From positions 1 to 64,000 of the IMG/VR virus record IMGVR_UViG_3300037400_002699: a DNA stretch of 64,000 bases. The stretch is one strand, 5' to 3'. This stretch comes from a virus. Its lineage: Duplodnaviria > Caudoviricetes. The notes below the pieces were generated by a model. That model saw nothing but the letters and a program-made list of their open reading frames with translations. It was not told the origin of the DNA and made no database searches. A program made the position numbers and the translations under genes. Shown piece after piece: positions 275 to 18,892 of the stretch (position 1 is the first letter of the stretch; every line of letters starts with the position of its first letter).

Positions 275-661
275 ATGAGACATTTTAGTACATTCGCAAT
301 GGTAGTCCTGCTGTTGACGCTTTCTATAGCCTCTTATGGGCTGTCACAGGACATTGAAAAGGTGAAGCCCTCACAACTGCAAGGGAAGTATATAACAGAC
401 GATTCTGAGGCTTTCTACACGTTTACTGGTGACAGCCTCTATATTGATTGCGCTGGAAGTGGTTGCGGCATCCATGCCTATAGTCTGAGATACACCAAGA
501 ATGATTTCAGTGAGTGTGACTTGGAAGAGACGGTAGTAGACTTATACACAGGCAGGGAGTTCAAGGAGAGGCATCACTTTAAGTTCTTAAAGCATGGTGA
601 CAGGGTTTCTGTGATGCTGGGAAGTAAAACAATAGACGTGATTAAGAAAGTGTTTCCATAA
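275..661 (+). CDS. Secreted/exported hypothetical protein
   Basis: 128 aa ORF with hydrophobic N-terminal signal-peptide-like segment (FAMVVLLLTLSIASYG). Confidence 0.65.
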   Translation: MRHFSTFAMVVLLLTLSIASYGLSQDIEKVKPSQLQGKYITDDSEAFYTFTGDSLYIDCAGSGCGIHAYSLRYTKNDFSECDLEETVVDLYTGREFKERHHFKFLKHGDRVSVMLGSKTIDVIKKVFP

Positions 662-692
662 TCATATTTACAGGTTTTAGGTTTTTTAACAG

Positions 693-741
693 TCTGGAAA
701 GGGCATAAATTTGCTTTTTCCAGATTTTTTTTATATCTTTG
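693..741 (+). promoter_or_regulatory. Composite terminator hairpin + Bacteroidota sigma promoter
   Basis: Stem TCTGGAAAGGGCA/TGCTTTTTCCAGA with T-tract, TTTG in loop/arm, TATCTTTG (-7 box) at 734-741. Confidence 0.7.
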
Positions 742-768
742 CACCAGTTAATTGAAACATTAAAATAA

Positions 769-1095
769 ATGGAACAGAACGAAAGTAAAATTTGGGAAAA
801 GTTCTACGGCAAGAAGATTTGCACGGAGAAACTAAACATTGAGGGTTTTAAGAAGCCCATTGAGTTTGACATCTACGACGGTCATGCTGTCTGTGAAAAC
901 TACAGGGGTCACAGGTTTGATATGTTCTACCCACAGATGAAAGCAATCAAGGACAGCAAGGAAATGGCTGATGCCATCATCGAGTCTGTTGGTGGGATTG
1001 AATGTGCCGACGAGATTACCGTACTACACATTCTTATTGCGTTTAACACGCTGTATAAGGACGGTGTTGAGATTAAGCCAAAAGAGGTAGAATAA
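769..1095 (+). CDS. Hypothetical early protein
   Basis: 108 aa ORF directly downstream of promoter, A-rich start context. Confidence 0.7.
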   Translation: MEQNESKIWEKFYGKKICTEKLNIEGFKKPIEFDIYDGHAVCENYRGHRFDMFYPQMKAIKDSKEMADAIIESVGGIECADEITVLHILIAFNTLYKDGVEIKPKEVE

Positions 1096-1129
1096 TCATT
1101 TATTATGGAAACTTAAACATTTAAGCATC

Positions 1130-1300
1130 ATGAGGAAATATACTATTCAATTGAATTATAATGCCTCCATCATCGTGGATGTAACTGGTAACGATGAGGG
1201 TGAGGCTCTGGATAATGCCCGTAACTTGGCAGAGGAAGCAGACATTAAGGAGTTTACCATCTGTGGCGAGAGGGAGAGCCAGATATTAAGACAGGAGTGA
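1130..1300 (+). CDS. Small acidic hypothetical protein (56 aa, MRKYYIQLNYNAS...)
   Basis: ATG 1130 to TGA 1298-1300 read by hand; below ORF-track cutoff. Confidence 0.6.
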   Translation: MRKYTIQLNYNASIIVDVTGNDEGEALDNARNLAEEADIKEFTICGERESQILRQE

Positions 1301-1361
1301 TTTTAGTTTTGTTCATAGGTTTTTTGTTGTTTTAGTTATTGGTTAATTATTGGTTGTATTT

Positions 1362-1394
1362 GGGAGGTACAGGATGCTGTGCCTCCCTCTTTTT
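1362..1394 (+). terminator. Intrinsic terminator
   Basis: GGGAGGTACAG-gatg-CTGTGCCTCCC followed by T-tract. Confidence 0.7.
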
Positions 1395-1445
1395 GTAAAG
1401 AAACCAGAAAAATTTTATATGTATGGAAAAAAAGTTAGGAAATTA

Positions 1446-1477
1446 TTTGGTTATCTCAAATATTTTGTCTACTTTTG
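1446..1477 (+). promoter_or_regulatory. Bacteroidota primary-sigma promoter
   Basis: TTTG at 1446 and TACTTTTG at 1470-1477. Confidence 0.75.
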
Positions 1478-1554
1478 CAGCGTGAAAGGGAAACAACAAC
1501 CCAATCACCCCCAGATTGGATAGTCCATCTGGGGAACTTAACAACAAAATCATT

Positions 1555-2085
1555 ATGGCTACAAGAAGTTGTGTAATTGTTAAGGTTCGTCCAGAGGACA
1601 TCGGTAAGATGTTCAAGTTCGATGCCAACAAACTGCCAAAGGGAGTGAAGTTAGACGATTGGCTCGAAAAGGATTCAGACGGTAAGGTATGGCTCGATGA
1701 AGTAGGAGAAGAGCGCAGCAAGAGCGTAGAACTCCAGAACGTATATATCGGCATCTACTGCCATTGGGATGGTTACATTAAGGGTGGCGTAGGTGATTCT
1801 CTGAAAGCGAAGTTCAACGATTACGAGACTGCACGGAATCTGATTGTAGGAGGCTTTTGCAGTTGCATCGAAGACAGCAAGGTACGTCACTATGCCAACA
1901 GAGGCACACCAGAGCAGAAGTGGATTTACGAGAAGTGGAACGACATTAAGCCAATTCAAGGCAAGACCCAGAAAGAGGTTTACGAGCATATCGACTGCCA
2001 GCACATCTATCTTTTTGACGAGGCTCGTGGCGGTTGGCTGCACAAGGAAATCGGCTGGTCTAAGTCTGGATTTAAGAAGTATTAA
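1555..2085 (+). CDS. Conserved phage hypothetical protein (MATRS...YCHWDGY family)
   Basis: MATRS start and IYCHWDGY motif typical of a widespread phage protein family; ATG 1555 preferred over upstream TTG. Confidence 0.75.
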   Translation: MATRSCVIVKVRPEDIGKMFKFDANKLPKGVKLDDWLEKDSDGKVWLDEVGEERSKSVELQNVYIGIYCHWDGYIKGGVGDSLKAKFNDYETARNLIVGGFCSCIEDSKVRHYANRGTPEQKWIYEKWNDIKPIQGKTQKEVYEHIDCQHIYLFDEARGGWLHKEIGWSKSGFKKY

Positions 2086-2099
2086 AAGGAGGTTTAATC

Positions 2100-2318
2100 A
2101 TGGAGTATAAGAGTGAAACAGGCTATGTAGCCACCGATACATTGAGCGGTATTGACATATATGATGCTGATGGTAATTTCGTCGTGGAGTTGCAGGGATT
2201 ATCCCTATCACGCTTCGAAGATGAAGATGGAAACATCAATGACAACCAGTTGGAAGAAGAAATCCGTAACACATTGGATGCACAGGAGTTTCTGGATTAC
2301 CAAGCAGAGTATTGTTAA
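2100..2318 (+). CDS. Small acidic hypothetical protein
   Basis: 72 aa, D/E-rich, follows previous gene. Confidence 0.65.
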   Translation: MEYKSETGYVATDTLSGIDIYDADGNFVVELQGLSLSRFEDEDGNINDNQLEEEIRNTLDAQEFLDYQAEYC

Positions 2319-2398
2319 AGATGTCAAAAATATGACGTGAAATTTTGATTTCTCAAAAAAAACTTATATCTTTGCACTACTAAAACAAGGTACGAGTT

Positions 2399-2521
2399 AT
2401 GAGTAAAAAGAAATTTCTACGCTCCATTGCCAACATTCGAGTCGTGGCGATGCCAAGCAAAGTAAGAGAAAACGAGGACGGTACTAAGACACAGCTCTAC
2501 AAAATCCGTCCAATGCGTTAG
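2399..2521 (+). CDS. Small basic peptide (40 aa, MSKKKFLRS...)
   Basis: ATG 2399 to TAG 2519-2521, directly after promoter TATCTTTG at 2367-2374. Confidence 0.45.
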   Translation: MSKKKFLRSIANIRVVAMPSKVRENEDGTKTQLYKIRPMR

Positions 2522-2524
2522 GTC

Positions 2525-3294
2525 GCCGCACGGGTTGGCAGCAGCCCCCAGACCAAGTAGTATTAACATTAAAAGTATGCAGCGATGAATAGTAATGAAC
2601 GACCCCCGCCCTAATGGGTGAATATAGTTAGACAGTTCGGAATATTATATAATCGAGTATGAATTTTAAAATGTAAAGGGGTGCATGGAAAAATCCCCAC
2701 ATCATAGAGTATGATTAGAGACCGACCCAACTAAGGAATGATACTTAGATGATAGACGATTTTAATAAAATGAAAAAACCCCAACAAGGTGGAGATAGGG
2801 TAAAGTTCGTGTAACGTTATAATGCCGCCGCATAAGTAAACTTTAATGCCAGGGCAAAGTGAGTTTGGAACACATGAGATAGTTCCGTCCGAGCCGATTA
2901 AGTGTCAATGAGCGACCAATATCCAGAGAGCCGCCATTTCCGAGGCACATTGCGCCCCCAGCCGCTACAAAAGAGAGCCGCATTTGGACGCATCCGTATG
3001 GCTATTAAACCACTGCCAAGGGCGATTAGGGCATACCGAAGTTGAGACAAGACCGCATAAGGAGTAACGTGCGCACAATTCTACTACCAAGCAATGCGGA
3101 TGTTAGTTATAGGATGCCCATTTTTCAACAGAGAGGGGCGATATTAGGCGAGCGAACCAATTTAGCCGAGTATATGCGCTTGCCATGCCCCATTAGAGAG
3201 TGAGGTGGGAGTGACCCACACAGATGTCGAACTGCGCTGCTTAACGCACTCGCCTTTGCCATCAAGGTGTGGTGTCCCACCCCGCTCATTTTTT
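2525..3294 (+). ncRNA. Candidate large structured non-coding RNA (GOLLD/ROOL-like class or new)
   Basis: ~770 nt without ORF, many long-range complementary segments including crossing (pseudoknot) helices, ends in closing stem 3198-3210/3275-3287 plus T-tract, immediately before a tRNA. Confidence 0.55.
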
Positions 3295-3297
3295 CAT

Positions 3298-3370
3298 GTG
3301 TCTATAGCTCAGTTGGTAGAGCGCCACATTTGATATGTGGGGGTCGGGGGTTCGAGTCCCTCTGGGCGCA
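3298..3370 (+). tRNA. Atypical tRNA, anticodon TGA (Ser-type) on a short-variable-loop body
   Basis: Cloverleaf: GTGTCTA/TGGGCGC acceptor, GCTC/GAGC D-stem, CCACA/TGTGG anticodon stem with loop TTTGATA, GGGGG-TTCGAGT-CCCTC T-arm; no encoded CCA. Confidence 0.75.
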
Positions 3371-3425
3371 CCCTCGTTGCGTTGTGATAACGCTGTTTGT
3401 TTTCCATAATGATTGTTAGGTTGAG

Positions 3426-3465
3426 GGGAGCACTCCAGATAAGGGGTGCTCCCATTGTTTTTTCT
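3426..3465 (+). terminator. Intrinsic terminator
   Basis: GGGAGCACTCC-agataa-GGGGTGCTCCC then T-rich tail. Confidence 0.7.
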
Positions 3466-3547
3466 TAATTTTCTCTAAAATATTTGGTAGTTTCGATTTT
3501 TTTGCCTAATTTTGCAGTGTCAAACAATTAAAGCAATAAGATTTATT

Positions 3548-3847
3548 ATGGAAAAAGAGATTATCGCCCTATTAAAGAGCAAAGGAATGACCAGAATGGG
3601 ATTCGGGCACAATGTCGAAATCACATCAGAGTTCGATGAAGATGGTGATGAATATCCAAGCATCGTCAATGCAGTTGAGATTACTGAATCTGGGCTGATT
3701 GCCTACGATTCAAATGACGAGGACGAAAACGGAGAGTATGACCCTTATTGGGAGGTATCTGAACTGCCAGAGGATATACAAAAGGAAATCCTGTGGGCAC
3801 TAAACACATTCCCTTGGGATGTCTGGAATTGGGAGGCTTATAAATAA
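3548..3847 (+). CDS. Acidic hypothetical early protein
   Basis: ATG 3548 after promoter TAATTTTG at 3507; very D/E-rich. Confidence 0.7.
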   Translation: MEKEIIALLKSKGMTRMGFGHNVEITSEFDEDGDEYPSIVNAVEITESGLIAYDSNDEDENGEYDPYWEVSELPEDIQKEILWALNTFPWDVWNWEAYK

Positions 3848-3864
3848 CTTAAACAACAAGTATT

Positions 3865-4287
3865 ATGGTTATAGGAGAATTAAAGGTTGTAAAGACCTCA
3901 AAGGTAAAGAACAATTACTATTATGGTGACTATGAGATTGTAGATACTTTCACACATTGCATTGTGAACGAGAAGTATGAAAAACTTGTTTCGCCAGAGA
4001 ACGGCATACACATTGTGGTAGAGTCCATCGACGGTGATAAACTGGACATTACAGCAAGCAAATATGCTTTCACGGGTGAGGATGAGAAGTATTGTGACAA
4101 GGACACAGAGTTTTCAACGTCGTTTTGTTTTGCTGGACATGTATATGAAATTGCTGTCAATGCTCGTGGGCAACTTGCATCTCTTGATGAATGGTATAGT
4201 ATTAGTGATTTCGAGGACAGTAATGAACCAGACAATCACTATAAAGCTAAGAGTAATGGTATCAAGTGGGAAGTTTTAAAACAATAA
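3865..4287 (+). CDS. Hypothetical early protein
   Basis: 140 aa ORF in operon. Confidence 0.7.
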   Translation: MVIGELKVVKTSKVKNNYYYGDYEIVDTFTHCIVNEKYEKLVSPENGIHIVVESIDGDKLDITASKYAFTGEDEKYCDKDTEFSTSFCFAGHVYEIAVNARGQLASLDEWYSISDFEDSNEPDNHYKAKSNGIKWEVLKQ

Positions 4288-4328
4288 GATTTAGAGATTG
4301 AGTTTGGGTATTTTATCTAAAAAGTGTT

Positions 4329-4376
4329 AAAAGTGAGGCTATTATTTGGTAGTCTCACTTTTTTTGCCTAATTTTG
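4329..4376 (+). promoter_or_regulatory. Composite terminator hairpin + promoter (repeat family)
   Basis: AAAAGTGAGGCTA-ttatttgg-TAGTCTCACTTTT, then TAATTTTG at 4369. Confidence 0.8.
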
Positions 4377-4406
4377 CAGTGTCAAACAACATTAAATATA
4401 AGAGAT

Positions 4407-4715
4407 ATGGAATTACAAAATTTTGAGAACACTCTTAGTGACGGCACAAAGGTTGTCACTTTGGGATTTACAAAGGATTGGAACGACATCGTTATTAAGA
4501 TGTTAGAATCTGATTCTGATTCATTCGGTAACTACTCTCTGGAACAGCAAGACCCAGAAATGGTGAACGTCTGGATTTCTGATGCTTTCAGTGAGGGAAA
4601 CACAGAGTATGCAGAAGCATTGCGGGATGGTTTAGCCCATGATGCTGACATCTACACTCTCGAAGATGGTATTGGCGATTTCCGTCAGCAGTTAGGTGAA
4701 GTAATAGTGTATTAA
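4407..4715 (+). CDS. Acidic hypothetical early protein
   Basis: ATG 4407 after promoter. Confidence 0.7.
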   Translation: MELQNFENTLSDGTKVVTLGFTKDWNDIVIKMLESDSDSFGNYSLEQQDPEMVNVWISDAFSEGNTEYAEALRDGLAHDADIYTLEDGIGDFRQQLGEVIVY

Positions 4716-4735
4716 CAATTAAAACAGGTAAGAAT

Positions 4736-4999
4736 ATGGCTGAGACTACGATTAAAAACATCTACTATGTGGATGAAAACGACAACACCAAGGGCAATGT
4801 CCTTGCGGTTAATGGTGATGTTGATATGAGGAAACAAGAGGTGATTGATAAAATTGCTGAGAAGTTAGTGGATATATTCTCTTTTGTCCCTTATATCTTG
4901 CTGCATAAGGAAGAGATTGCAAGGTGCATCGCATATCACAACTTTGCCAATATCCATGAATATACTTTTGGCGTGGAAGAGATTGATTTCTTGTCATAA
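4736..4999 (+). CDS. Hypothetical protein
   Basis: 87 aa ORF, A-rich start context. Confidence 0.65.
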   Translation: MAETTIKNIYYVDENDNTKGNVLAVNGDVDMRKQEVIDKIAEKLVDIFSFVPYILLHKEEIARCIAYHNFANIHEYTFGVEEIDFLS

Positions 5000-5016
5000 T
5001 TCGTTAAAATAATGTT

Positions 5017-5064
5017 AAAAGATGAGGCTACATTTGGTAGTCTCATTTTTTTTATCTAATTTTG
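5017..5064 (+). promoter_or_regulatory. Composite terminator hairpin + promoter (repeat family)
   Basis: ATGAGGCTA-catttgg-TAGTCTCAT + T-tract, TAATTTTG at 5057. Confidence 0.8.
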
Positions 5065-5082
5065 CACCAGAGTTAAAACAAT

Positions 5083-5382
5083 ATGAGTATGGGAAAAGAG
5101 CAATTAAATCAGATTGGCGACAATGTTCTGGAAAGTGAGTTCTTTCAGAAATACGCCTACAAGGGGCACTGGACGAGTGGCAGTAGTACAGAAGTTTACC
5201 CTCTCACCGTCAACATGGTAGACATGAGCATTGTGATTCAACTGGATTGTAACACCCTTCGAGGGATTAAACAAGCCCTTGACAAGTTAGTCAGACAGAT
5301 TGGTGAACATCTGGTTAGGAGGTACTACATTTGGAAAACTGATGGTAGTTGCCCCAATGAAGCAAGAATCTATTTTAAATAA
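5083..5382 (+). CDS. Hypothetical early protein
   Basis: 99 aa ORF after promoter. Confidence 0.65.
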   Translation: MSMGKEQLNQIGDNVLESEFFQKYAYKGHWTSGSSTEVYPLTVNMVDMSIVIQLDCNTLRGIKQALDKLVRQIGEHLVRRYYIWKTDGSCPNEARIYFK

Positions 5383-5389
5383 TACAACT

Positions 5390-5521
5390 ATGGGTAAGAA
5401 AGATAAGCAAAACAAAAGTAACGACTTTCTGGTTACATCATGGTTTCTGGCAACGCCAGTGCCAGACTACACCAGTCTGATTGAGCAACAGAGCAAGGTG
5501 TATTATTCACCAGTACGTTAA
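5390..5521 (+). CDS. Small hypothetical protein (MGKKDKQ...)
   Basis: ATG 5390 with A-rich context, in operon. Confidence 0.45.
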   Translation: MGKKDKQNKSNDFLVTSWFLATPVPDYTSLIEQQSKVYYSPVR

Positions 5522-5540
5522 ACAATTAATACTGTATATT

Positions 5541-5639
5541 ATGTTTTGGATATTTCTAATAGTTTCTCTGGGCATTCTGGTCTACGATATAGTGACCGAC
5601 CCAAAGTTTAAGGAAAAACTTAAAGAAGTGGAGGAATAG
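5541..5639 (+). CDS. Small membrane peptide (32 aa, MFWIFLIVSLGILVY...)
   Basis: Single hydrophobic helix followed by charged tail; read by hand. Confidence 0.5.
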   Translation: MFWIFLIVSLGILVYDIVTDPKFKEKLKEVEE

Positions 5640-5641
5640 TT

Positions 5642-5776
5642 ATGGTAATGCGACTTTATATGAAACCAGACCCAGGGATGTATATGCCAGTTCTGGTTGA
5701 CGCATTCGGCAGCGTTGAGTACCATCCGAAGCATCACAAGCTAAAAGGATGGCAGAAAGCAAAAAAACATCGCTAA
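5642..5776 (+). CDS. Small hypothetical protein (44 aa)
   Basis: ATG 5642 to TAA 5774-5776, tightly coupled to previous ORF. Confidence 0.45.
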   Translation: MVMRLYMKPDPGMYMPVLVDAFGSVEYHPKHHKLKGWQKAKKHR

Positions 5777-5836
5777 AAATTTGGAATTACGAGAAAAAAT
5801 TTATATCTTTGCACAAGAATTAATATTTATAGTAAC

Positions 5837-6112
5837 ATGGCACAGAGAGCAAGAGCTATCAAGAACGGATTCGACAACTGCGTGTTCATCAGCAAGGACA
5901 TTGAAAAGGTTGTTAAGATACTGAGTGACAGAATCGCTGAGCACGATGTATTCACAGAGAATCCACAGGATATTAAGATGAGTCGTATCGACGACACTCA
6001 TGACCGATTATCTTTAACATTCAGTAACGGCACACTGGATGGTATTGTCACGTGGACTAAGACGAGCAATGGCTCGCACTACTTATTCCATTTTGACGTA
6101 GAAGAGAACTAA
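5837..6112 (+). CDS. Hypothetical early protein
   Basis: 91 aa ORF after promoter TATCTTTG at 5804. Confidence 0.7.
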   Translation: MAQRARAIKNGFDNCVFISKDIEKVVKILSDRIAEHDVFTENPQDIKMSRIDDTHDRLSLTFSNGTLDGIVTWTKTSNGSHYLFHFDVEEN

Positions 6113-6188
6113 ATTTATTTGTACTCATAAAGGTAATAATAAAAATTGAGCCATCCAAGTCTGTGACAGATATGGGTGGTTTTTTTTT

Positions 6189-6204
6189 TGTTTCACGTGG
6201 AACA
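6189..6204. promoter_or_regulatory. parS centromere-like site
   Basis: TGTTTCACGTGGAACA; reverse complement TGTTCCACGTGAAACA matches the bacterial chromosomal parS consensus TGTTNCACGTGAAACA. Confidence 0.75.
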
Positions 6205-6205
6205 T

Positions 6206-6290
6206 GCGACGGTGGTGGAACTGGCGTACACACATCCCTTAAAAGGATGCAGTCCGAAGGGGCTTGCGGGTTCGAATCCCGCCCGTCGTA
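6206..6290 (+). tRNA. tRNA-Leu (anticodon TAA)
   Basis: GCGACGG/CCGTCGT acceptor, CATCC-CTTAAAA-GGATG anticodon arm, long variable arm, GCGGG-TTCGAAT-CCCGC T-arm, A73. Confidence 0.92.
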
Positions 6291-6307
6291 CATTGTTAAA
6301 GAGTATT

Positions 6308-6355
6308 AAAAATGAGGCTATTATTTGGTAGTCTCATTTTTTTTGTTTAATTTTG
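6308..6355 (+). promoter_or_regulatory. Composite terminator hairpin + promoter (repeat family)
   Basis: ATGAGGCTA-ttatttgg-TAGTCTCAT + T-tract, TAATTTTG at 6348. Confidence 0.8.
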
Positions 6356-6379
6356 CCACATAAATAAGCATATAAGAGT

Positions 6380-6667
6380 ATGAAAAGATTTAAAGTTAGA
6401 ATTACAGACAATAATGGTTTCTATCGTGAGTTTGACGATGGCACTGCCATTGGAGGCAGTTATGGAGACCCACATGTGGCTACAATGAGCCTCAATGAGA
6501 CAGAATTTAAGGCTCTTACGATGTTCATGGGACAGGTGAGTGATTTGCGTCATGATGTAGCACTATTTAACTTTTCCCAGTGCTGTGTGCTAACTCCTTG
6601 GCATAAGAGGGTGATTTGTAAGACATTTCCCCAGATTACAGAACAAGTAACAATTGAAATCTTATAA
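6380..6667 (+). CDS. Hypothetical early protein
   Basis: 95 aa ORF after promoter. Confidence 0.65.
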   Translation: MKRFKVRITDNNGFYREFDDGTAIGGSYGDPHVATMSLNETEFKALTMFMGQVSDLRHDVALFNFSQCCVLTPWHKRVICKTFPQITEQVTIEIL

Positions 6668-6679
6668 GACTATATAATT

Positions 6680-7514: not shown

Positions 7515-7664
7515 CTCTTTCCATATCTTATATTTTGTTGTTGACGGGGCTGGGGTGTACTAGGCACTCCAGCCTTACTTTTTTCTTAAATAATCTTAAA
7601 ATATTTGGTAGTTACAGGATTTTTGCCTAATTTTGCAGTGTCAAACAATTAAAGCAATAAGATT

Positions 7665-12203: not shown

Positions 12204-12211
12204 AAAATATT

Positions 12212-12260
12212 AAAAGATTGGGCTATCATTTGGTAGTTCCAATCTTTTTGTTTAATTTTG
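12212..12260 (+). promoter_or_regulatory. Composite terminator hairpin + promoter (repeat family)
   Basis: AAAAGATTGGGCTA-tcatttgg-TAGTTCCAATCTTTT, TAATTTTG at 12253. Confidence 0.75.
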
Positions 12261-12324
12261 CATCGTCAAACAGTATAATGTACTTAGAAAAGTACAAGTA
12301 GGTTATATTAAAAGCAATATCACT

Positions 12325-12516
12325 ATGGAAGTAAGAATTACATTTAGAAGCGAGATTTACATCAATGGCGATAGTCTGGAAGATGTATCAAAGAAGTGGG
12401 AATCTCTGGAATTATTCTCTGATGAAGCCAACGCTTGTGGTGCTTGTGAGATTGAACTCGTAAGTGTTGAGGATGAAGATAACAACGACATTAAGTCAGA
12501 GTTTGACAGACTATAA
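12325..12516 (+). CDS. Small acidic hypothetical protein
   Basis: 63 aa, strongly D/E-rich. Confidence 0.65.
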   Translation: MEVRITFRSEIYINGDSLEDVSKKWESLELFSDEANACGACEIELVSVEDEDNNDIKSEFDRL

Positions 12517-12530
12517 TTAAGGTTTGGACT

Positions 12531-12761
12531 ATGACACAGGTAGTAAGAATAGGACAAGGCAGAAGCAAGTCTGGAAAGATTCTGGATAGAGGTACGGTCT
12601 GGTTTAATATCGACTCTAAGGAGGCTTGGGAACGCTGCATCCATGAATGGAGTATGAAGAAGTATAGCTGTAAGCCTGTTTACCTGTCAAAGAATGGCAG
12701 GGCGTACAAGCAAATCTCTGGTGAGCAGTTGCTACGACTTGGCGACACGTTTAAATCTTAG
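12531..12761 (+). CDS. Small basic hypothetical protein
   Basis: 76 aa ORF. Confidence 0.6.
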   Translation: MTQVVRIGQGRSKSGKILDRGTVWFNIDSKEAWERCIHEWSMKKYSCKPVYLSKNGRAYKQISGEQLLRLGDTFKS

Positions 12762-12773
12762 TATTATATCTAT

Positions 12774-12923
12774 ATGAATGACGACAGGTATTACGACCCA
12801 TTTACAGGACGCAGGACAGCTCCCTACCCCAGTCCTGTACATGTTAGGAGCATGAGAGAGATTAAGGCTGACTTTAACAGGCATATCCAGAGTCATGCCA
12901 AGAGTAAAACGAGACCACATTAA
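12774..12923 (+). CDS. Small hypothetical protein (49 aa, MNDDRYYDP...)
   Basis: ATG 12774 to TAA 12921-12923, followed by hairpin terminator. Confidence 0.5.
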   Translation: MNDDRYYDPFTGRRTAPYPSPVHVRSMREIKADFNRHIQSHAKSKTRPH

Positions 12924-13082
12924 TAAGGCTTGGGACTACCAAAATAGGGTAGTTCCGAGCTTTTTTCTTAAAAGATGTTAAATATTCGAGAAAAATTTGG
13001 TGGTTAGAAAAAATCGTTGTACCTTTGCCAGCGAATCCAACCGATAGTAGTTGGTAAACGTCAAATCAAAACTAAAAAAGTT

Positions 13083-13838
13083 ATGGCAAACAAACTTAGT
13101 TCCATCTATTTTGGAAGTAGAAAGAATGGTGAAGTAATCACAGAGAGAACCAGCGAGTTAGCAGCCTATTACGCAGCAGTGAATGTATTCCCAGTGCTGA
13201 CAACTGATGAAGAAGTGGAGTTGGCTTTTCAGACTAAGGCTGGTAACAAGGCTGCAAAGGAGAAGTTAATCAACTCTAATCTGCGTGGTGTTATCTCCAT
13301 TGTAAGAGAGCATTACGATGGTTGTGGCGGTTGCCTTACTACTATGGATTTGATTTCTGCTGGCAATATAGGTCTGATGAAAGCCGTAGATAAGTTCGAC
13401 CCTACCATTGGCGTGAAGTTCTTATCATTCGCAGTCAATGACATTCGTGCTGCCATTCTCGAAGAGATTAAGAAGTCAAGCCGCATCGTAGCCGACTACC
13501 ATAAGGATGCTACCACAAAGCACACATCGCTGGATGCTCCCCTTACTGATGATGATAATAACGCCACATTGGGTGACGTGCTTTGCACCACAACTGATAA
13601 AGAGCCTAACGAATCATTGCTGACTGACCTATTGAGAGTTATCAATATCCTGCTGGACGAAAAGGAAGCCAATATCATTTGCGTACTCTATGGCATTGGC
13701 ACTACGGCAAAAAGCAGATGGCAGATTGCAGAGGACTACGGACAGACAGAGGAAAGAATTAGGCAGATTTCAGTTACTGCCATTGGCAAGTTAAAGGCTA
13801 ATAAAAATGCTATGATTCTGCTGTCTAAGTATATTTAA
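13083..13838 (+). CDS. RNA polymerase sigma70-family factor (RpoD-like, degenerate region 2.3)
   Basis: Region 1.2 (LTTDEEVELA), region 2 (EKLINSNLRGVISI..DLISAGNIGLMKAVDKFDP), region 4 HTH (QIAEDYGQTEERIRQI); ATG 13083 after promoter at 13020. Confidence 0.88.
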   Translation: MANKLSSIYFGSRKNGEVITERTSELAAYYAAVNVFPVLTTDEEVELAFQTKAGNKAAKEKLINSNLRGVISIVREHYDGCGGCLTTMDLISAGNIGLMKAVDKFDPTIGVKFLSFAVNDIRAAILEEIKKSSRIVADYHKDATTKHTSLDAPLTDDDNNATLGDVLCTTTDKEPNESLLTDLLRVINILLDEKEANIICVLYGIGTTAKSRWQIAEDYGQTEERIRQISVTAIGKLKANKNAMILLSKYI

Positions 13839-13962
13839 AGAGCCTGACCCCACCATCAATGTGGTGGTGGGGATTTCTTAAAAGATATTAAAAAATCGAG
13901 AAATATTTGGTAGTATCAGAAATAATGACTACCTTTGCAGCGACAATTTAAACAACATCATT

Positions 13963-14655
13963 ATGGTACAGAGCATTAACATTAATAAGTTCCTTTTCGG
14001 TAGGACAAGGGCAGAGAAGAAGTTAGAGGTCATTAAGAACCTTAGTGCAAAAGAAGTGATGAACGTCAATGATGCAACCATCATCCGCATCTACAAGGAG
14101 TGCAGGGATGGCAGGGACAGATTCTACATCAATTCAGAGCGCAGAGTTGGCAACGATTGGAATAGCACCATCGAGTTCATCTATGAGTATCAAGGCAGGG
14201 CAATTCTGATGCTCTATATTCAAAATAGTAGCACTGATTCATCAATCAGTAAAAGTCTGTCAGAGTTCAAGAGAGGTGGCACTTGGTATGGGCATATCAG
14301 AGGTTCATATACCTACAATTCAGAGGACATCGTTCGCACCCTGCGCTGCATCCTTATGGAGTACGTCTATTGGAAGTATATCGAGAGGGCAGAGAGGGAT
14401 AAGGCAAAGAAGTTGGAATCCATTGCAGGATGGAAGATTATTAATCCCGTAGTGGACTATTTCTACAAGAATATGAGATTAGACAACTTGCCTTTCTCCT
14501 ATGCCACAACGACACCGAGATACAACCAATACTGCAAGGGTAAGAAAGCACTTGAAGAATACGCAAAGAGCCATGTAGACGAGTTGTTTGGCAAGTCGGT
14601 GGAAGAACTCCAAGCCATATACAAAGAAGTCTTTAGAAAGGCTGCAAATTGGTAA
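13963..14655 (+). CDS. Hypothetical early protein
   Basis: 230 aa ORF after promoter TACCTTTG at 13930. Confidence 0.75.
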   Translation: MVQSININKFLFGRTRAEKKLEVIKNLSAKEVMNVNDATIIRIYKECRDGRDRFYINSERRVGNDWNSTIEFIYEYQGRAILMLYIQNSSTDSSISKSLSEFKRGGTWYGHIRGSYTYNSEDIVRTLRCILMEYVYWKYIERAERDKAKKLESIAGWKIINPVVDYFYKNMRLDNLPFSYATTTPRYNQYCKGKKALEEYAKSHVDELFGKSVEELQAIYKEVFRKAANW

Positions 14656-14829
14656 GAAGTTTTGTTTTGTGTCATAACATATTAAGTTTTAGGTTTTTAG
14701 TTATTCATTCTGTGTGGCTGGGCGCTTGTGAAAGTCCCCAGCCATTTTTTTCTTAAATAATCTTAATAAATTTGGTAGTATGGAAAATTATGACTATCTT
14801 TGTACCCGAAATCAATAAACAACAAAGTT

Positions 14830-15138
14830 ATGGCAAACGTATCAACAACAAGATTTATCGTAGTGGTGTTCATTGATGGAGTTGGATGCACACTACAAGA
14901 GGGCAATGTGATGTCTTGGTTCTTCCGTCACTATCCGAAGTCCTACAAGTATTTTGAGTGCGCAAGGAAAAAGGCTAACACCCTGCTCTACCAATACAGA
15001 TGTGATAAGGTCTGTGTGTTCAAGGTAGAACTTGAAGAAAGACTATCGTGCGACCAATATAAGAAGTGGTGCGAGGACGAAAACAGAAATATGTGGGATT
15101 CATCTAAGTTATTCAATGATATTGATATAAGGTTATGA
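14830..15138 (+). CDS. Hypothetical early protein
   Basis: ATG 14830 after promoter at 14795. Confidence 0.65.
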   Translation: MANVSTTRFIVVVFIDGVGCTLQEGNVMSWFFRHYPKSYKYFECARKKANTLLYQYRCDKVCVFKVELEERLSCDQYKKWCEDENRNMWDSSKLFNDIDIRL

Positions 15139-15249
15139 AGAAGTATAAGTATATTAACGGCATCAAGCATAAGGCAATAGGTTACACATACGATGGTAAG
15201 CCAATAGGCTGGATTGCTTGCGGTAAGAACGATTAAAATGATTAAGACT

Positions 15250-15540
15250 ATGATACTGAAAAAAGACATTAAAATCGTTAATGAGTTTCTTGGTACTACT
15301 GATGTAAAAAGCATCATAAGTCCATTGAAATGCATTAGAACTTACTTTAAAGGGAATAGTATTGACAATGACGGACACGTTAATCATAAAAACATCATTA
15401 TGGTAGTAACTCCAATGATGTATGATTACAATGAGCCATTAGAGTTTTTTATAGGTGCTGCAAGTGCTGGAGGTGTTAAGCTAAAGATTGTTGAACATAA
15501 GGTAGGAACAAATTTCGTTAGAACATTAGAGGAGGAATAA
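15250..15540 (+). CDS. Hypothetical protein
   Basis: ORF in operon, ATG 15250 chosen. Confidence 0.6.
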   Translation: MILKKDIKIVNEFLGTTDVKSIISPLKCIRTYFKGNSIDNDGHVNHKNIIMVVTPMMYDYNEPLEFFIGAASAGGVKLKIVEHKVGTNFVRTLEEE

Positions 15541-15542
15541 AT

Positions 15543-15731
15543 ATGAGAAGAAAGATTATCAAGAAGGTGAATATCTACTCAGTAGATTGGCTTCACAATG
15601 GCTTCTGCTATCGCACCACAATGGGATGCACTTGGGAAGATGTTCTGGATTGTAAGAGGGCAGCAAGACTGATGGGCGAGAAGATTGAGTATCAAAAGTA
15701 TGATGTGAGAAAAGACGTATATACACTATAA
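15543..15731 (+). CDS. Small hypothetical protein
   Basis: 62 aa, coupled to previous stop. Confidence 0.6.
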   Translation: MRRKIIKKVNIYSVDWLHNGFCYRTTMGCTWEDVLDCKRAARLMGEKIEYQKYDVRKDVYTL

Positions 15732-15744
15732 AACAATAACGATT

Positions 15745-15987
15745 ATGGAAGAACTTAAAGAGAACGTTAGAAAACAAATCCTTAGCCTATTCCAATGGTG
15801 GGATGCAAGCGACATTGAAAGCATCCAGAGCGCAATTCTGGATGATGTGTGTAAGGACGTGGTAGAAACATCTGGTTATCCAGACTACAATGATTCCGAT
15901 ATTCGGATTGCTATTAAGAGAACTATCGTAAACAACTTACAAAACTTTAATGAGTTATGCAAAAGAAGAGAACATTTGGGGACTTAA
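15745..15987 (+). CDS. Hypothetical protein
   Basis: 80 aa ORF. Confidence 0.65.
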   Translation: MEELKENVRKQILSLFQWWDASDIESIQSAILDDVCKDVVETSGYPDYNDSDIRIAIKRTIVNNLQNFNELCKRREHLGT

Positions 15988-16289
15988 GGAAAGGTAGTTA
16001 TTTCTGGTCTGCTGGTATCGGTAGTGTAACCAGACAAAGGGTGTTTTGGATTGATAGGACTGATGATAAAGTAAAGTTTGGGACATCTTGGTACACAATG
16101 AAAAGTATTACCGTCGCCAACGATGCAACTGAATACATTGATGATTCGAAACGTTGGTTTACTGATAAACAAGATGCCAGAAGATGTGCCTATGAGTTAA
16201 TCCAGAAGGAGGTTAAAGATGCCGAGATTCACCTAAATTGGCTGAAAGAACGTGCAGAGTCGTTTAGGAGGAATTTTATCGATTGTTAA
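15957..16289 (+). CDS. Hypothetical protein
   Basis: 110 aa ORF overlapping previous. Confidence 0.65.
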   Translation: MQKKRTFGDLRKGSYFWSAGIGSVTRQRVFWIDRTDDKVKFGTSWYTMKSITVANDATEYIDDSKRWFTDKQDARRCAYELIQKEVKDAEIHLNWLKERAESFRRNFIDC

Positions 16290-16397
16290 AATATTATAAA
16301 AAATGGGACTATCTCTTGGTAGTTCCATTTTTTATTATTACCTTTGCACACAGAAACCTAAGGATAGTCCGAAGGTAATACTTAAAACATCATTATT

Positions 16398-16640
16398 ATG
16401 GCAAAGCAAACAACAAGACCTCTGTACGAGGTAGCAGAAGAAATCCGCAAGGATTGGAAGAACATCTACTTTGGTGCAAAACCTTACCTTGACGCAATGT
16501 CGTGCCTGGAGTCAGTCAATGACAACTATGGTTGGGACTCTGGTAAGAGCATCGTACTCTATTTCCTTGCAAACGCATGTAGCTGGAGAGGTGAAACCGC
16601 CAGACGCATCAAGAAGGAACTTAACGCTATGGTAAAGTAA
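16398..16640 (+). CDS. Conserved small phage protein (RPLYE.A.EI..DWK..YFGA.PYLDAM family)
   Basis: Recognisable widespread phage hypothetical motif; follows composite promoter at 16298-16346. Confidence 0.75.
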   Translation: MAKQTTRPLYEVAEEIRKDWKNIYFGAKPYLDAMSCLESVNDNYGWDSGKSIVLYFLANACSWRGETARRIKKELNAMVK

Positions 16641-16706
16641 GAATAACATCACCCGCCACCACTTTGATGGCGGGTTCTAATATAAACAATTAAAAACAAC
16701 AACATT

Positions 16707-17513
16707 ATGAGACAGCAAGTAGTAAGAAATTCAGAGGGTGAGCCAATGGGTATTGAGTACGTTCGTGACCAGTACGAAGAGGAAGAGGCTTTGTGTGAGG
16801 AGATGCAGATGAGGGCAGAAGACCCCATGTATGCAGCCAGACAAGAGGATGCCTATTGGTATCAGCAAGCGGTGGCTTGTTTCGAGGAGAAGGGCATCCA
16901 AGTCCCTTATAGTGTTATTAATGCACTCAAGTGCGAACTCCGCAAGAAGGAGGCTAAGAGGGAGGAGGAGAAGGCTCTCAAAGAGGCTGAACCTACCCTC
17001 AACTACCTCAACGAGAAACTGCCTAACTGCCAGTTCTATGCCAACTATTTCTCAGAGTCTTGGGATGAGGTTGCTCACGTGGAGATTGGGTGCAAGAACC
17101 GCCCCTATCGCTGGGAACTCGCTGAGGTCATTGCTGGCTTGACCGATGAGGATTGGAAGAAGGGTATCAGCATCGAGGATTATTTCAGCTATAACGAGTG
17201 CAAGACCCTCGTACACGGCGATGCTGGCAGATACTGGGGTTGCTACGTTCGTAGTTGGACGGCTGAGGAGAATTGCGGTAGTGAGTTCTTGTTTGCTCTC
17301 GCTAAGAACTGGCTGGATGAAAAGCAGACACCAAACGTACCAGAGGAGGAGAGATACCTACAAGCCATCTGGCATATCTCACCAGCCACCGATGACTGCG
17401 GCAATAGTCTTCGTGAGGAGTTCGAGAGAAAACACCCAGACTGCCTCATCTGGAGTGGTGAGATTCGCCACAATGGGGACTACAATGACATCATTTGTTT
17501 CCATTGGAGTTAA
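16707..17513 (+). CDS. Hypothetical protein
   Basis: 268 aa, acidic, strong codon bias. Confidence 0.75.
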   Translation: MRQQVVRNSEGEPMGIEYVRDQYEEEEALCEEMQMRAEDPMYAARQEDAYWYQQAVACFEEKGIQVPYSVINALKCELRKKEAKREEEKALKEAEPTLNYLNEKLPNCQFYANYFSESWDEVAHVEIGCKNRPYRWELAEVIAGLTDEDWKKGISIEDYFSYNECKTLVHGDAGRYWGCYVRSWTAEENCGSEFLFALAKNWLDEKQTPNVPEEERYLQAIWHISPATDDCGNSLREEFERKHPDCLIWSGEIRHNGDYNDIICFHWS

Positions 17514-17619
17514 AAACTCTTAAAAGATTGGGACTATTGATTGTAGTTCCAATCTTTTTTCTTACCTTTGCAAACGGAAACCCAAGGATAGTCCAAGGGT
17601 ACAACTTAACAACAACATT

Positions 17620-17874
17620 ATGATTACCGCAGAACAAGCAAAGCAGTACACTAAGAAGTTCGAACCAAATAAGGAGTTGGTAGAACAAGTAGAAGAACAA
17701 ATCAAGAGAGGTGAGCGTCACATTCACGTTTACACTACCCGCTATTGCCGTGACTATGCAGAGGACTTTGCAAAGTATTGTAGAGAGCAAGGCTACACCA
17801 ACGCACGCATTGAGGACATCTACAACCGCAGAACGGGTGAGAGAGGTGGCAATTATCTCGCTATCGACCTTTAA
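17620..17874 (+). CDS. Hypothetical early protein
   Basis: 84 aa after composite promoter 17522-17570. Confidence 0.7.
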   Translation: MITAEQAKQYTKKFEPNKELVEQVEEQIKRGERHIHVYTTRYCRDYAEDFAKYCREQGYTNARIEDIYNRRTGERGGNYLAIDL

Positions 17875-17938
17875 GGCATCAGTGGGGTGGGGAAACTCCC
17901 CATCCCTTTAATCATTAACAATTCAAACTATTAGTAAT

Positions 17939-18661
17939 ATGAGAATCGAAAACAAGACAAGAGAGCAAGTAACTAACTTGATTGCAAAACACATCAAGGA
18001 GTGCTTTAAGACTATGGGTAGCCGTACCAATATGAATCTTGACATCGACCTTTCTAATTGGGTGTGCGGCATGGGACGTGACAAGAAGTGGAGCAATTCA
18101 GAAATCCGCTTTGGTGGAAACTCTTACATATTCAAGGACAAGGAAATCACTGATGCAGCATTTATCCGTATGCTTAATGATGCTGCTGCCCTTTCCAATG
18201 TAAGATGCAAGGTGTATAGCCAAACCTATGGTGATGGTTACTGGACACCGCAGGAGGTACGTTTCGAGAGATTGGAAATTTATGCCAAGCCATGCAAGGA
18301 GTTCATCAGCCTATATAAACTATTAGAGAAGTATGCTGACAAGTCACTGGGCGAAACAGAAGTGTTCTTTGCAAGGGTATGTGGCAAACGTTCAAGTTGG
18401 TCGGAGAGTGGCAGACGTTCATATCTCTGCTATGATGCCAAGCAATGTCAGAACATCATCGACACCATTCGCAAGCACAGAACAAGCAAGGACACCCTTA
18501 GATTTGACGTAGAAGAGTATTTCTCTCACGGGGACGAATGCGAATATAAGATAGCACAATACCAAGAATCAGAGTGGTATGGTAGCAACCAAACCAAACT
18601 GCATATCACCATCAAGACACCAAACGGCAAGGTTAAAGCAGACTACAAGTTTGGTGTGTAG
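17939..18661 (+). CDS. Hypothetical protein
   Basis: 240 aa ORF. Confidence 0.75.
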   Translation: MRIENKTREQVTNLIAKHIKECFKTMGSRTNMNLDIDLSNWVCGMGRDKKWSNSEIRFGGNSYIFKDKEITDAAFIRMLNDAAALSNVRCKVYSQTYGDGYWTPQEVRFERLEIYAKPCKEFISLYKLLEKYADKSLGETEVFFARVCGKRSSWSESGRRSYLCYDAKQCQNIIDTIRKHRTSKDTLRFDVEEYFSHGDECEYKIAQYQESEWYGSNQTKLHITIKTPNGKVKADYKFGV

Positions 18662-18892
18662 TACTTTTATAAGTACATATTGCATAATGCTATACGATTT
18701 AAGTTTTGATTAATTATGTTTCATACTTAGCCAGCATCAGTTGTGAAACTCGTGCTGGTTTTTTTTATATGTATATAAGACTTAAAAAAGTACATTAGTT
18801 ATATACACAACATAATACACATATCACCACATTATATAATACCATAACACATCATATATGATTATCATAATGTAAAATAATATTATTGTGTA

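Follow-up and report, generated by a model that had tools for sequence, protein, structure and literature searches.

U-rich candidate anti-start-codon tracts before the terminators of early transcripts in a large phage of Prevotella-type bacteria

The window analysed here, a stretch of 64,000 nucleotides, comes from a large phage whose hosts are Prevotella-type bacteria of the gut or rumen, and several of its early transcripts, one tRNA transcript included, carry U-rich tracts in their 3' tails. A first-pass annotation had described seven operon ends of the same layout, and this layout is common to six of them (S1, S2, S3, S5, S6 and S7, beginning at 653, 1301, 3374, 7515, 14656 and 18662), in which a U-rich tract with CAU, predicted to be single-stranded, is followed by a strong terminator. 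S8 is a new member, S4 is doubtful, and S3 ends a tRNA transcript and not a protein gene. The features are listed below with the evidence for each in brackets.

653–690, plus strand: S1 tract, in which GTTTCCATAAT overlaps the stop codon of gene 275–661 and is followed by GGTTTTAGGTTTTTT (profile, shuffles, fold, conservation)
691–734, plus strand: S1 terminator hairpin and T-run (fold)
1301–1361, plus strand: S2 tract, TTCATAGGTTTTTTGTTGTTTTAGTTATT... (conservation in relatives)
1362–1394, plus strand: S2 terminator (fold)
3297–3373, plus strand: tRNA, anticodon UGA, class I body, with S3 as its trailer (ARAGORN; Rfam tRNA, 60 bits)
3374–3425, plus strand: S3, a 5' hairpin GCGTTGTGATAACGC (3379–3393) and then the seed TGTTTGTTTTCCATAATGATTGTTAGGTTGAG (recurrence, covariation)
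3426–3463, plus strand: S3 terminator (hairpin call; paired changes across the family)
6113–6189, plus strand: S4, doubtful, an A-rich linker and terminator before tRNA-Leu (composition, relatives)
7515–7545, plus strand: S5 tract, CTCTTTCCATATCTTATATTTTGTTGTTGAC (RNAduplex, conservation)
7546–7586, plus strand: S5 terminator (fold)
14656–14715, plus strand: S6 tract, GTCATAACATATTAAGTTTTAGGTTTTTAGTTATTCAT (profile, shuffles, S3-family model)
14716–14751, plus strand: S6 terminator with GUGA loop (sequence, fold)
18662–18731, plus strand: S7, a palindrome GTACTTTTATAAGTAC, then GCATAATGC and a U-rich tract (profile, shuffles, relative G001)
18732–18767, plus strand: S7 terminator with GUGA loop (sequence, fold)
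45377–45480, minus strand: S8, an extra member after a minus-strand gene, CCTCATAATTTTTTAAATATTTTGTTATCAT... and then a terminator (profile, S3-family model, shuffles)

The tract 5' of each of the six terminators is 30–70 nt long, contains CAT and consists of 44–58% T. Terminator-like hairpins lie at 691–726, 1362–1387, 3426–3453 and 7546–7576 in S1, S2, S3 and S5, and those of S6 and S7 (14716–14743 and 18732–18759) were read from the sequence and then folded; the TGTGA(A) loops that several terminators share are GNRA tetraloops (GUGA). In centroid folds of the six tails and two relatives, the tracts are unpaired in S1, S2, S3 and S5 and partly paired in S6 and S7, and the folding energy of the terminators reaches z-scores of −2.5 to −4.5. 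S1, S2, S5, S6 and S8 run in the sense orientation from the last stop codon through the tract to the operon's own terminator, and S3 begins one base after the tRNA and extends to the terminator of that transcript, an arrangement that is also found in relatives. S4 has weak duplex z-scores, and its membership is doubtful because it is 46% A and its linker, unlike its hairpin, is not kept in the relatives G001 and G002; it is probably not a family member.

The reverse complements of the tracts had been proposed to resemble A-rich, SD-less translation starts, and a profile of 43 curated plus-strand starts of the phage (window −25 to +7) bears this out. The best minus-strand matches to the profile in the first 20 kb fall at 14675 (S6, the top match with 16 bits), 18685 (S7, 14.3 bits), 659 (S1), 3407 (S3) and 7524 (S5), and these make up five of the eight minus-strand matches of at least 9.5 bits in that region, where S4 and S2 rank 15th and 19th. 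A binomial estimate gives about 5e-6 for five of eight matches inside the 770 nt upstream of 11 GC-rich terminators, and genome-wide only three antisense matches occur in 118 kb of coding sequence. S8 contains an antisense match at 45461. With 2000 dinucleotide shuffles per tract, the likeness exceeds that of the shuffled controls for S8 (p = 0.001), S7 (0.0015), S6 (0.005), S3 (0.009), S4 (0.015) and S1 (0.02) and not for S2 in this genome (p = 0.36), while S5, too short for the profile shuffles, has RNAduplex z-scores of −4.4 to −6.7. For most sites, the likeness to starts thus goes beyond what composition explains.

The S2 core is, judging by sequence comparison, under purifying selection. 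Anchoring on the upstream gene, S2 was found in 12 of 14 distinct loci and was absent from the other two, and its 30-nt core has an identity of 0.83 vs 0.48 at synonymous third positions, which are near saturation, whereas the terminators are unrelated. S3 occurs in about 17 IMG/VR phage contigs, always behind a tRNA or tRNA-like element (of 19 sequences scanned, namely 18 relatives and the window, 9 have a tRNA according to ARAGORN, and in the others a T-arm-like sequence is visible by eye). Its seed is invariant beside different tRNAs, and both flanking hairpins show compensatory changes, with a covariation score of 0.45 vs 0.16 in shuffles that was exceeded in none of 500, and with all nine terminator pairs changed on both sides across the family; S3 as well is, by these comparisons, under purifying selection. 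Furthermore, a covariance model built from S3-type tails only recovers S6 (23.4 bits, E = 0.014), S8 (19.1 bits), S1 (17.2 bits) and S2 in the window, together with extra paralogues in other phages. The sequence evidence supports the view that the tracts are genuine paralogues, forming one family that is antisense to SD-less start regions.

The tracts behave as modules that are attached to the terminator and retained when the upstream genes change. S1 is present in G001, L155 and G002, and in G002 it persists though the upstream gene is mostly deleted (only its signal peptide is left) and the tract is read in a shifted frame. S5 is 98% identical in G001, where it stands behind a different, inserted gene, and it is kept in G002, with more distant versions found by anchoring on the upstream gene. 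S7 is likewise kept in G001 behind another inserted gene; in that genome the original gene is separated from S5 and from S7 by other genes, and the junction falls exactly at the stop codon. S6 is 97.7% identical in G001 and absent in G002, and TTTTTAGTTATTCAT is common to S6 and an element of G002.

The pairing partners of the tracts were compared across 154 phage starts (38 early and 116 others). At equal leader A content, S1, S2, S3, S5 and S7 pair better with the early starts (p = 2e-6 for S1, 5e-8 for S3 and 4e-8 for S5), and this preference was not found for S6 and S8. The ten best partners of S3 are all early genes, as are nine of ten for S5, and among early genes S2 pairs best with 769, which opens the operon of S2 itself. 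No specific long target was found in the phage, the longest perfect matches of 11–14 nt being near chance for 134 kb. The exact complementarity that had been pointed out between 653–665 (S1) and 11391–11403 stands, but an equally long match lies inside a coding sequence at 53312, and in the close relative G001 the match is not conserved and does not covary. An apparent signal of co-adaptation between S3 variants and local starts proved to be an artefact. Host mRNAs had been included among the proposed targets under a host-takeover reading, for which no specific support emerged: the best pairing is with the phage's own early starts, and partial matches in 301 Prevotellaceae genomes (54 vs 38 for a shuffled control) are not clearly above background.

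The FopS family of Bacteroides thetaiotaomicron consists of multicopy paralogous sRNAs with a seed antisense to SD-less start regions, of which FopS-10 blocks the in-vitro translation of a susC mRNA (PMC11697453). The printed seed is likewise U-rich, contains CAU and directly precedes a Rho-independent terminator, the design has been shown to repress translation in Bacteroides, one FopS is derived from a 3'UTR, and a copy has been noted in a phage (PMC11697453). The phage tracts resemble FopS/GibS in being multicopy in one genome and in having an unpaired U-rich CAU seed with a terminator directly after it, whereas FopS has its own sigma-ABfr promoters and its seed at the 5' end; the phage tracts are operon or tRNA tails with no promoter found, and their best partners are phage early genes and not susC. 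Local alignment to the printed 35-nt FopS consensus reveals a weak, collinear similarity (p = 0.007–0.05) for the S2 of relative L147 and for S1, S3 and S6 (about 0.02–0.05 for these three), and no significant alignment for S2 (p = 0.21), S5 and S7 of the window; TTTTTCATAGT is common to the FopS seed and the commoner S2 type, which occurs in relatives such as L147. Rfam gave no FopS/GibS match at E ≤ 10 in 1–20 kb or 2300–3480, the presence of such a model in Rfam 15 being unconfirmed. The resemblance to FopS that had been suggested in the first-pass annotation lies in the build and the weak similarity; with no own promoter found and no Rfam match at E ≤ 10, the tracts are at most candidate members of the family.

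CpxQ, SroC and DapZ are 3'UTR-derived sRNAs that carry the terminator of their mRNA, and the prophage RNA DicF is cut from the dicB operon and blocks the ftsZ start. The phage tracts share with them the 3' end of a coding transcript, a conserved seed upstream of a shared terminator and, as proposed, release by processing, and DicF is in addition phage-derived and occludes a start region; however, each of those RNAs comes from a single gene, acts on specific targets and requires Hfq or ProQ, whereas the phage tracts form a battery of paralogues with a generic anti-start seed in a phylum that is not known to have Hfq. The 3' external transcribed spacer of Escherichia coli leuZ is an sRNA sponge, and the tRNA cluster of phage T4 carries the stable RNAs C and D, for which we know of no function. 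Similarly, S3, which occurs in large phages, trails a tRNA in its transcript, and tRNA 3' processing would set it free, but the leuZ spacer sponges sRNAs and not mRNAs. T4 also has RegA, a translational repressor of early mRNAs, and RegB, a nuclease that cuts early Shine-Dalgarno sites. The likeness to these is a functional analogy in the proposed outcome only, a shut-off of the phage's own early-class translation through start regions; the T4 agents are proteins, whereas the phage agent would be RNA acting on starts without Shine-Dalgarno sequences.

That the S tracts are 3'-end-derived RNAs that occlude start regions is, on the sequence features described, the likeliest reading, to which we give not quite an even chance, and in it we infer processing, pairing in cells and an effect on translation. 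A terminator-protected 3' fragment would outlive the decay of its mRNA, or would be freed by tRNA 3' processing in the case of S3, and would then pair with A-rich SD-less start regions over about positions −30 to +8, AUG included, and keep 30S subunits off the mRNA. Its best predicted partners are the phage's own early-class leaders, which have one consensus as parts of a repeated promoter-leader cassette, and similar host starts could also pair; the result would therefore likely be a dose-dependent damping of early translation, and of some host translation, which would grow as early transcripts accumulate as an RNA counterpart of the T4 protein RegA. Against this, a generic anti-start RNA that is part of its own target mRNAs requires some additional control, and none is evident. 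Moreover, descent from inverted leaders alone would also give complementarity to early leaders.

Such descent is part of the explanation in which the tracts are functionless relics, either inverted copies of the promoter-leader cassette before terminators or sequences that arose by chance in T-rich spacers. When reverse-complemented, S5 does align with the leader at 4381–4412, from GTCAA to ATGGAA, cassette shuffling is rife in the region, and G002 conserves neither S4 nor S6. Beyond the leader, however, no tract continues as an inverted promoter, conservation across distant phages is far higher in the S2 and S3 cores than at synonymous sites and in flanking hairpins, and S1 persists after the loss of its gene, and we regard this origin without function as quite improbable. 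That the sites are start regions of genuine minus-strand genes is hardly credible, even though their profile scores of 10–16 bits are inside the range of true starts and a 58-aa ORF begins at 14675. The minus-strand ORFs are short (7 aa at S1, 9 at S5, 20 at S2, about 33 at S3, about 37 at S7 and 58 at S6) and antisense through conserved plus-strand genes or a tRNA, each has a plus-strand terminator immediately upstream in the minus-strand sense, and the peptide at S1 varies in length and sequence among relatives. The earlier statement that minus-strand promoters are lacking was confirmed near five of six sites in a scan for TAnnTTTG, and the case of real minus-strand genes, named beforehand as refuting, was checked and not found. 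On the plus strand, no −7 box lies within 150 nt upstream of S1, S3, S5, S6 or S7, and S2 has a −7 box (TAGTTTTG) at 1304 without a −33 element. S7 may have a promoter-like motif of its own; its palindrome resembles a motif repeated at 9750, 10752 and 12280.

A cis-acting 3'UTR element, in which the U-rich tract binds a protein or sets mRNA stability or termination efficiency and the antisense likeness is secondary, is unlikely but deserves more weight. The tract is always directly upstream of the terminator and travels with it, it is unpaired in predicted folds, and no specific target emerged for it; the binding protein could be, for example, ribosomal protein S1, a phage factor or an RbpB-like RRM protein, and RbpB is known to bind single-stranded parts of U-rich sRNAs, FopS included. 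A spacer or generic U-rich site, however, needs no ordered arrangement of CAU and anti-leader that beats dinucleotide shuffles, it leaves unexplained why early-class starts are preferred when A content is equal, and S3 trails a tRNA, not an mRNA. It is very unlikely that the tracts are specific antisense regulators of certain host genes, with the S3-type seed directed against a BspA-type surface-protein mRNA and the start likeness incidental. A gene for a 2365-aa BspA-LRR protein on a true Prevotellaceae chromosome contig does contain a perfect 34-nt complement to the commonest S3-type seed, confined to the single-stranded seed, but this is the single such site among 185,579 species genomes, with none in a metagenome scan, and it lies at a domain joint that homologues do not share, so it may be a remnant of phage DNA. 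Furthermore, the S3 variant of the window differs inside the matching stretch, and the other S tracts have no such site.

Occlusion of start regions by 3'-end-derived RNAs could extend to a whole clade of large Prevotellaceae phages, with a conserved battery of tails, borne by early operons and by a tRNA-like transcript, acting in trans as generic anti-start-codon RNAs that silence both the early class of the phage itself and host mRNAs similar to it, a possibility that is tentative and on balance doubtful. To our knowledge, Bacteroidota have neither Shine-Dalgarno-led initiation nor Hfq; their translation control is poorly understood, and FopS is the main worked example of a start-occluding sRNA family there. 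The conserved seeds are short and defined, for example TTTTCCATAAT..TTGTTAGGTT and TTCATAGTTTTTTATTGTTTTAT, and could mark this phage clade in rumen and gut metagenomes. If the proposal is true, phages of Bacteroidota would use start-region occlusion in multiple copies within their transcript ends, tRNA or tRNA-like units could act as release handles for anti-start RNAs, and the battery would achieve with RNA alone an early shut-off like that of RegA/RegB, suited to a host phylum without Shine-Dalgarno sequences.

The phage contig is 134,273 bp long, has a G+C content of 39% and contributes its first 64 kb as the window. Some 43 small early genes lie tightly packed on the plus strand of positions 1-19,000, and their promoters belong to promoter-leader cassettes of Bacteroidota type that occur repeatedly (TTTG ... 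TAnnTTTG ... GTCAAACAAttaaa ... attATGg). Class A hairpins, which are A/T-flanked (repeat families D1-D4), are joined to many of these cassettes, and since the next promoter takes its -33 TTTG from the loop of such a hairpin, terminator and promoter together make up a single repeated cassette. The remaining transcription units end in GC-rich class B hairpins, and every site described in the first-pass annotation lies directly ahead of one of these. The tracts, U-rich and CAU-containing tails ahead of a terminator, and the class A hairpins are as follows:

653 (+), tract S1
1301 (+), tract S2
3374 (+), tract S3
6117 (+), tract S4, A-rich and doubtful
7515 (+), tract S5
14656 (+), tract S6
18662 (+), tract S7
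45377-45480 (-), tract S8, added later
4329-4362, 5020-5050, 6308-6341, 8993-9026, 10426-10459, 11318-11352, 12212-12248, 16296-16335 and 17522-17558, class A terminators (extended hairpins, loop ATTTGG giving the -33 TTTG)

Two syntenic relatives were found in IMG/VR, UViG_3300028805_000055 (G001, ~86-95% DNA identity) and UViG_3300037400_003463 (G002, ~66-83%), and a search of deposited phages returned no near match. The promoters are of Bacteroidota type, the leaders lack SD sequences and a Prevotellaceae MAG contains a related sequence, all of which points to Prevotellaceae as the putative host. The window carries further repeats. Genes 9794, 10818 and 12325 each have ahead of them a palindrome, G(G/T)ACTTnnAnAAGTACA, with GTTATAT after it (repeat family D9; copies at 9750-9781, 10752-10783, 12280-12311 and 18775-18805, a variant at 18662-18690, and L013:2085-2250 among the loci from relatives), and two copies stand before an S-like element in G002; the motif might serve as another type of promoter or as an operator, perhaps recognised by the sigma-like protein that the phage encodes at 13083-13838. 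Two 17-nt copies of TGTTTCACGTGGAACAT (6189-6205 and 18892-18908, inverted pair I12) form a perfect inverted pair and are parS-like, and the copy after the S4 hairpin is also kept in G001 and G002. Gene 19410-20936 is flanked by gene-free stretches rich in CCAGCA/CACAC repeats (18800-19300, 20930-21130 and 22150-22520; D12/D15), which may be related to replication or packaging.

The common layout proposed for seven operon ends holds for six of them, while at S4 only the hairpin is conserved in relatives, and S4 was therefore dropped from the family. With CAT as the anchor, the tracts follow the pattern TT(T)CCATAAT..GTTTTAGGTTTTT; GTTTTAGGTTTTT is common to S1 and S6, TTTTAGTTATT to S2 and S6, and TTTTTAGTTATTCAT to S6 and an element of G002, and the complements give the leader consensus cTTAAAAC-N10-ATTATGGAAA, spacing included. 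In centroid folds the tract is unpaired in S1, S2, S3 and S5 and partly unpaired in S6 and S7, and a strong hairpin is predicted at the end of every tail. The TGTGA(A) reported as shared between terminator loops is indeed present and corresponds to GUGA, a tetraloop of the GNRA class that commonly stabilises hairpins. An initial global alignment of all seven sites (MAFFT) yielded nothing useful, and the pattern CATAA..GTTTTAGGTTTTT gave for the most part chance matches in IMG/VR. A covariance model built on S3 only scored S6 (23.4 bits), S8 (19.1), S1 (17.2) and S2 (13.1) in the window, with E-values that are marginal singly (0.014 to 3). Its window matches number eight, of which four belong to the sites investigated here and one more to S8, and it also picks up orthologues of these four tracts and extra paralogues in other phages. 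On these comparisons the tracts are a family and not seven coincidences.

Their behaviour in relatives indicates that the tract goes with the terminator, not with the gene. In G001, where S5 is 98% identical, it is separated from its associated gene by an additional gene as well as a promoter and a tRNA-like unit, and S7 is likewise displaced by a different inserted gene, both junctions lying at the stop codon. In G002 only the signal peptide is left of the gene preceding S1 and the reading frame across GTTTCCATAAT is shifted, yet the tract and its start-like complement are kept. S6 is 97.7% identical in G001 and absent in G002. For S2, a search anchored on the protein of gene 1130-1300 yielded 14 distinct loci, 12 of which have a CAT-containing U-rich tract after the stop codon, in most close to (T)TTCATAGTTTTTTATTGTTTTAT. 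Among eight distinct orthologues, with the two loci lacking the core omitted, mean identity is 0.76 for amino acids, 0.48 for synonymous third positions and 0.83 for the 30-nt core; between loci L155 and L132 the values are 0.62, 0.37 and 0.90. The terminators behind these cores are unrelated, and the identities indicate that the S2 core is conserved beyond neutral expectation.

S3 is the clearest case among the tails. It begins one base after a tRNA (3297-3373), and a seed-pattern search of IMG/VR recovered ~17 copies judged true, on contigs between 12 and 412 kb long, every one after a tRNA or tRNA-like element, these elements differing in sequence. The layout consists of a small hairpin GCGTTGTGATAACGC, the proposed single-stranded seed (C)TCTTTGTTTTCCATAAT(TTGA/GAA/GA)ATTGTTAGGTT(TTTAGTT/GAGG) and the terminator. 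In a model-based alignment of 18 copies, in which 19 seed positions are fixed by the search pattern itself and G001 and G002 were found by synteny instead, both sides change in 9/9 terminator pairs and in 2/5 pairs of the 5' hairpin, 96.6% of cells are paired (shuffles, 82%), and the covariation score of 0.45 (shuffles, 0.16) was exceeded by none of 500 shuffles. The window tRNA combines a class I body with the Ser anticodon UGA, and ARAGORN gives 2-nt or 4-nt 'anticodons' to six of the relatives' S3-linked elements and calls no tRNA in ten, where a T-arm-like sequence is nevertheless visible. These odd tRNAs (window 3297-3373; loci L131, L135, L143, L147, L149 and L151) may be tRNA-like processing handles.

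The region preceding the tRNA (2399-3296) contains one short ORF (2399-2521) and 770 nt that have no ORF and a higher G+C content; parts of this unit recur upstream of S3-type tails in other phage contigs (L136, 82% over 511 nt; L147, 92% over 183 nt). It matches no Rfam family at E<=10 and may be a large structured RNA transcribed together with the tRNA. An anchor placed in it retrieved five already known contigs only (G001 and four found by the pattern), and the S3 seed is present in all five.

That the reverse complements of the tracts read as SD-less translation starts was borne out by a profile of 43 curated starts (-25 to +7) scanned over both strands of the first 20 kb. The best minus-strand matches are at 14675 (S6, 16.0 bits), 18685 (S7, 14.3), 659 (S1, 11.1), 3407 (S3, 10.3) and 7524 (S5, 9.8), true starts scoring 9-24 bits, and S4 (7.5) and S2 (6.2) are also within the top 19. 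Five of the eight matches of at least 9.5 bits fall in the 770 nt in all that lie upstream of the eleven class B hairpins (binomial estimate ~5e-6), and 118 kb of coding sequence in the whole genome holds only three antisense matches, S1 among these. The whole-genome scan also uncovered S8 (~45461), which follows a minus-strand gene. Against 2000 dinucleotide shuffles per tract, p is 0.02 for S1, 0.009 for S3, 0.005 for S6, 0.0015 for S7, 0.001 for S8 and 0.015 for S4; start-likeness is thus not explained by composition, S2 excepted (p=0.36). RNAduplex against the 43 early starts gave top-five z values of -6.0 (S5), -4.2 (S1), -2.7 (S7), -2.3 (S2 and S6) and -1.6 (S3 and S4), and an inverted-repeat list independently matches tracts with start regions (I7, I10, I11, I15, I19, I20 and I22). 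A weaker antisense start-like match (4990-5012, 10.4 bits) occurs at the end of gene 4736-4999, before a class A hairpin, its CAT formed by the last codon TCA and the stop TAA, an arrangement that several distant orthologues of S5 also have.

Start-like sequences might simply be the starts of real minus-strand genes, which is scarcely credible here. The minus-strand ATGs open frames of 7, 9, 20, ~33, ~37 and 58 codons, all antisense to plus-strand genes or to the tRNA, a plus-strand terminator obstructs the minus-strand route into each site and, in agreement with the first-pass annotation, the minus-strand TAnnTTTG box is lacking upstream at five of six sites. On the plus strand, too, no promoter was found ahead of the tracts, and each tract is thus the tail of the transcript from the preceding unit.

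Within the phage, the predicted pairing partners of most tails are biased. Among all 154 called starts of the genome, 25% of them early, the ten best partners of S3 and nine of the ten best of S5 are early genes, and early starts pair more strongly than the rest with S3 (p=5e-8), S5 (4e-8), S1 (2e-6), S2 (0.002) and S7 (0.004), with no such preference for S6 and S8; leader A content is equal (0.45 early, 0.46 other). A long specific target is absent from the phage genome, perfect matches reaching 11-14 nt only. Several specific pairings were considered and rejected. The reported complementarity of S1 to gene 11391 is a real, exact 13-nt match, but G001 alters S1 without a matching target change, and a second match of the same length falls within a coding sequence. 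The idea that a tail pairs with the opening gene of its own operon fits S2 (rank 1 of 43 early starts, second among all) and S5 (rank 2) but not S1, S3 and S6, so it is not general, and pairing with the next operon's start fits S7 only. An apparent co-adaptation of S3 variants with local starts arose from the element's own antisense pseudo-ORF.

For host start regions, partial complements (16-23 nt) of S3-type RNA occur in 54 of 301 Prevotellaceae genomes; a shuffled query gives 38, which is not clearly different, and the genome count itself is therefore not informative, but 8 of 11 inspected real matches lie exactly on the starts of 150-500-codon ORFs. The exact-pattern search gave one Prevotellaceae match among species genomes. 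At G003:C1:18055-18088 (L159:2055-2088), 34 nt are perfectly complementary to the most frequent S3-type seed, and the match does not go beyond the single-stranded seed; this site lies in frame inside a 2365-aa BspA-LRR/MBG surface-protein gene on a Prevotellaceae MAG chromosome, at a domain joint not shared by homologues. A metagenome scan for such a site found only another sRNA copy, and the protein after the BspA site has no phage relatives in IMG/VR. The BspA site may be a target or a decoy, or else a scar that phage DNA left behind.

Bacteroidota initiation relies on an unstructured A-rich leader, and the tails have the anatomy of base-pairing RNAs, a conserved unpaired seed beside a protective terminator and, in S3, a 5' hairpin. 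In Bacteroides thetaiotaomicron, the sRNA FopS-10 pairs with the start-region leader of susC mRNA and blocks its translation (PMC11697453). For these reasons we tentatively favour, at somewhat less than even confidence, the reading that the tails act as anti-start RNAs. They would be released from early transcripts by processing and would pair in cells with start regions, and would affect translation chiefly of the phage's own early class, and of similar host mRNAs too. That the tails are instead cis-acting protein-binding or stability elements, tied as they are to their terminators, is rather unlikely; it would leave the preference for early starts unexplained. Relics of inverted leaders could share the leader consensus, and this is improbable given the conserved cores of S2 and S3. 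Specific antisense against host genes, as the BspA site might suggest, is quite improbable.

The anti-start reading has several parallels. CpxQ and prophage DicF are 3'UTR-derived sRNAs, 3'ETS-leuZ is a tRNA trailer RNA and stable RNAs occur in the T4 tRNA cluster; the position and proposed biogenesis of the tails match the former two, and those of S3 the latter. The resemblance to FopS noted at first pass stands in the tail design, which is the same as in FopS/GibS, and in a weak collinear similarity to FopS. This falls short of establishing membership, as the phage tails have no promoter of their own and no Rfam match at E<=10. The FopS paper already records one member derived from a 3'UTR and a copy of FopS carried by a phage (PMC11697453), and a literature search of limited coverage found no description of such tails in Bacteroidota phages. 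The proposed outcome would parallel that of T4 RegA/RegB. To conclude, the comparisons argue for a real conserved family of RNA tails, for which a putative anti-initiation role is plausible.
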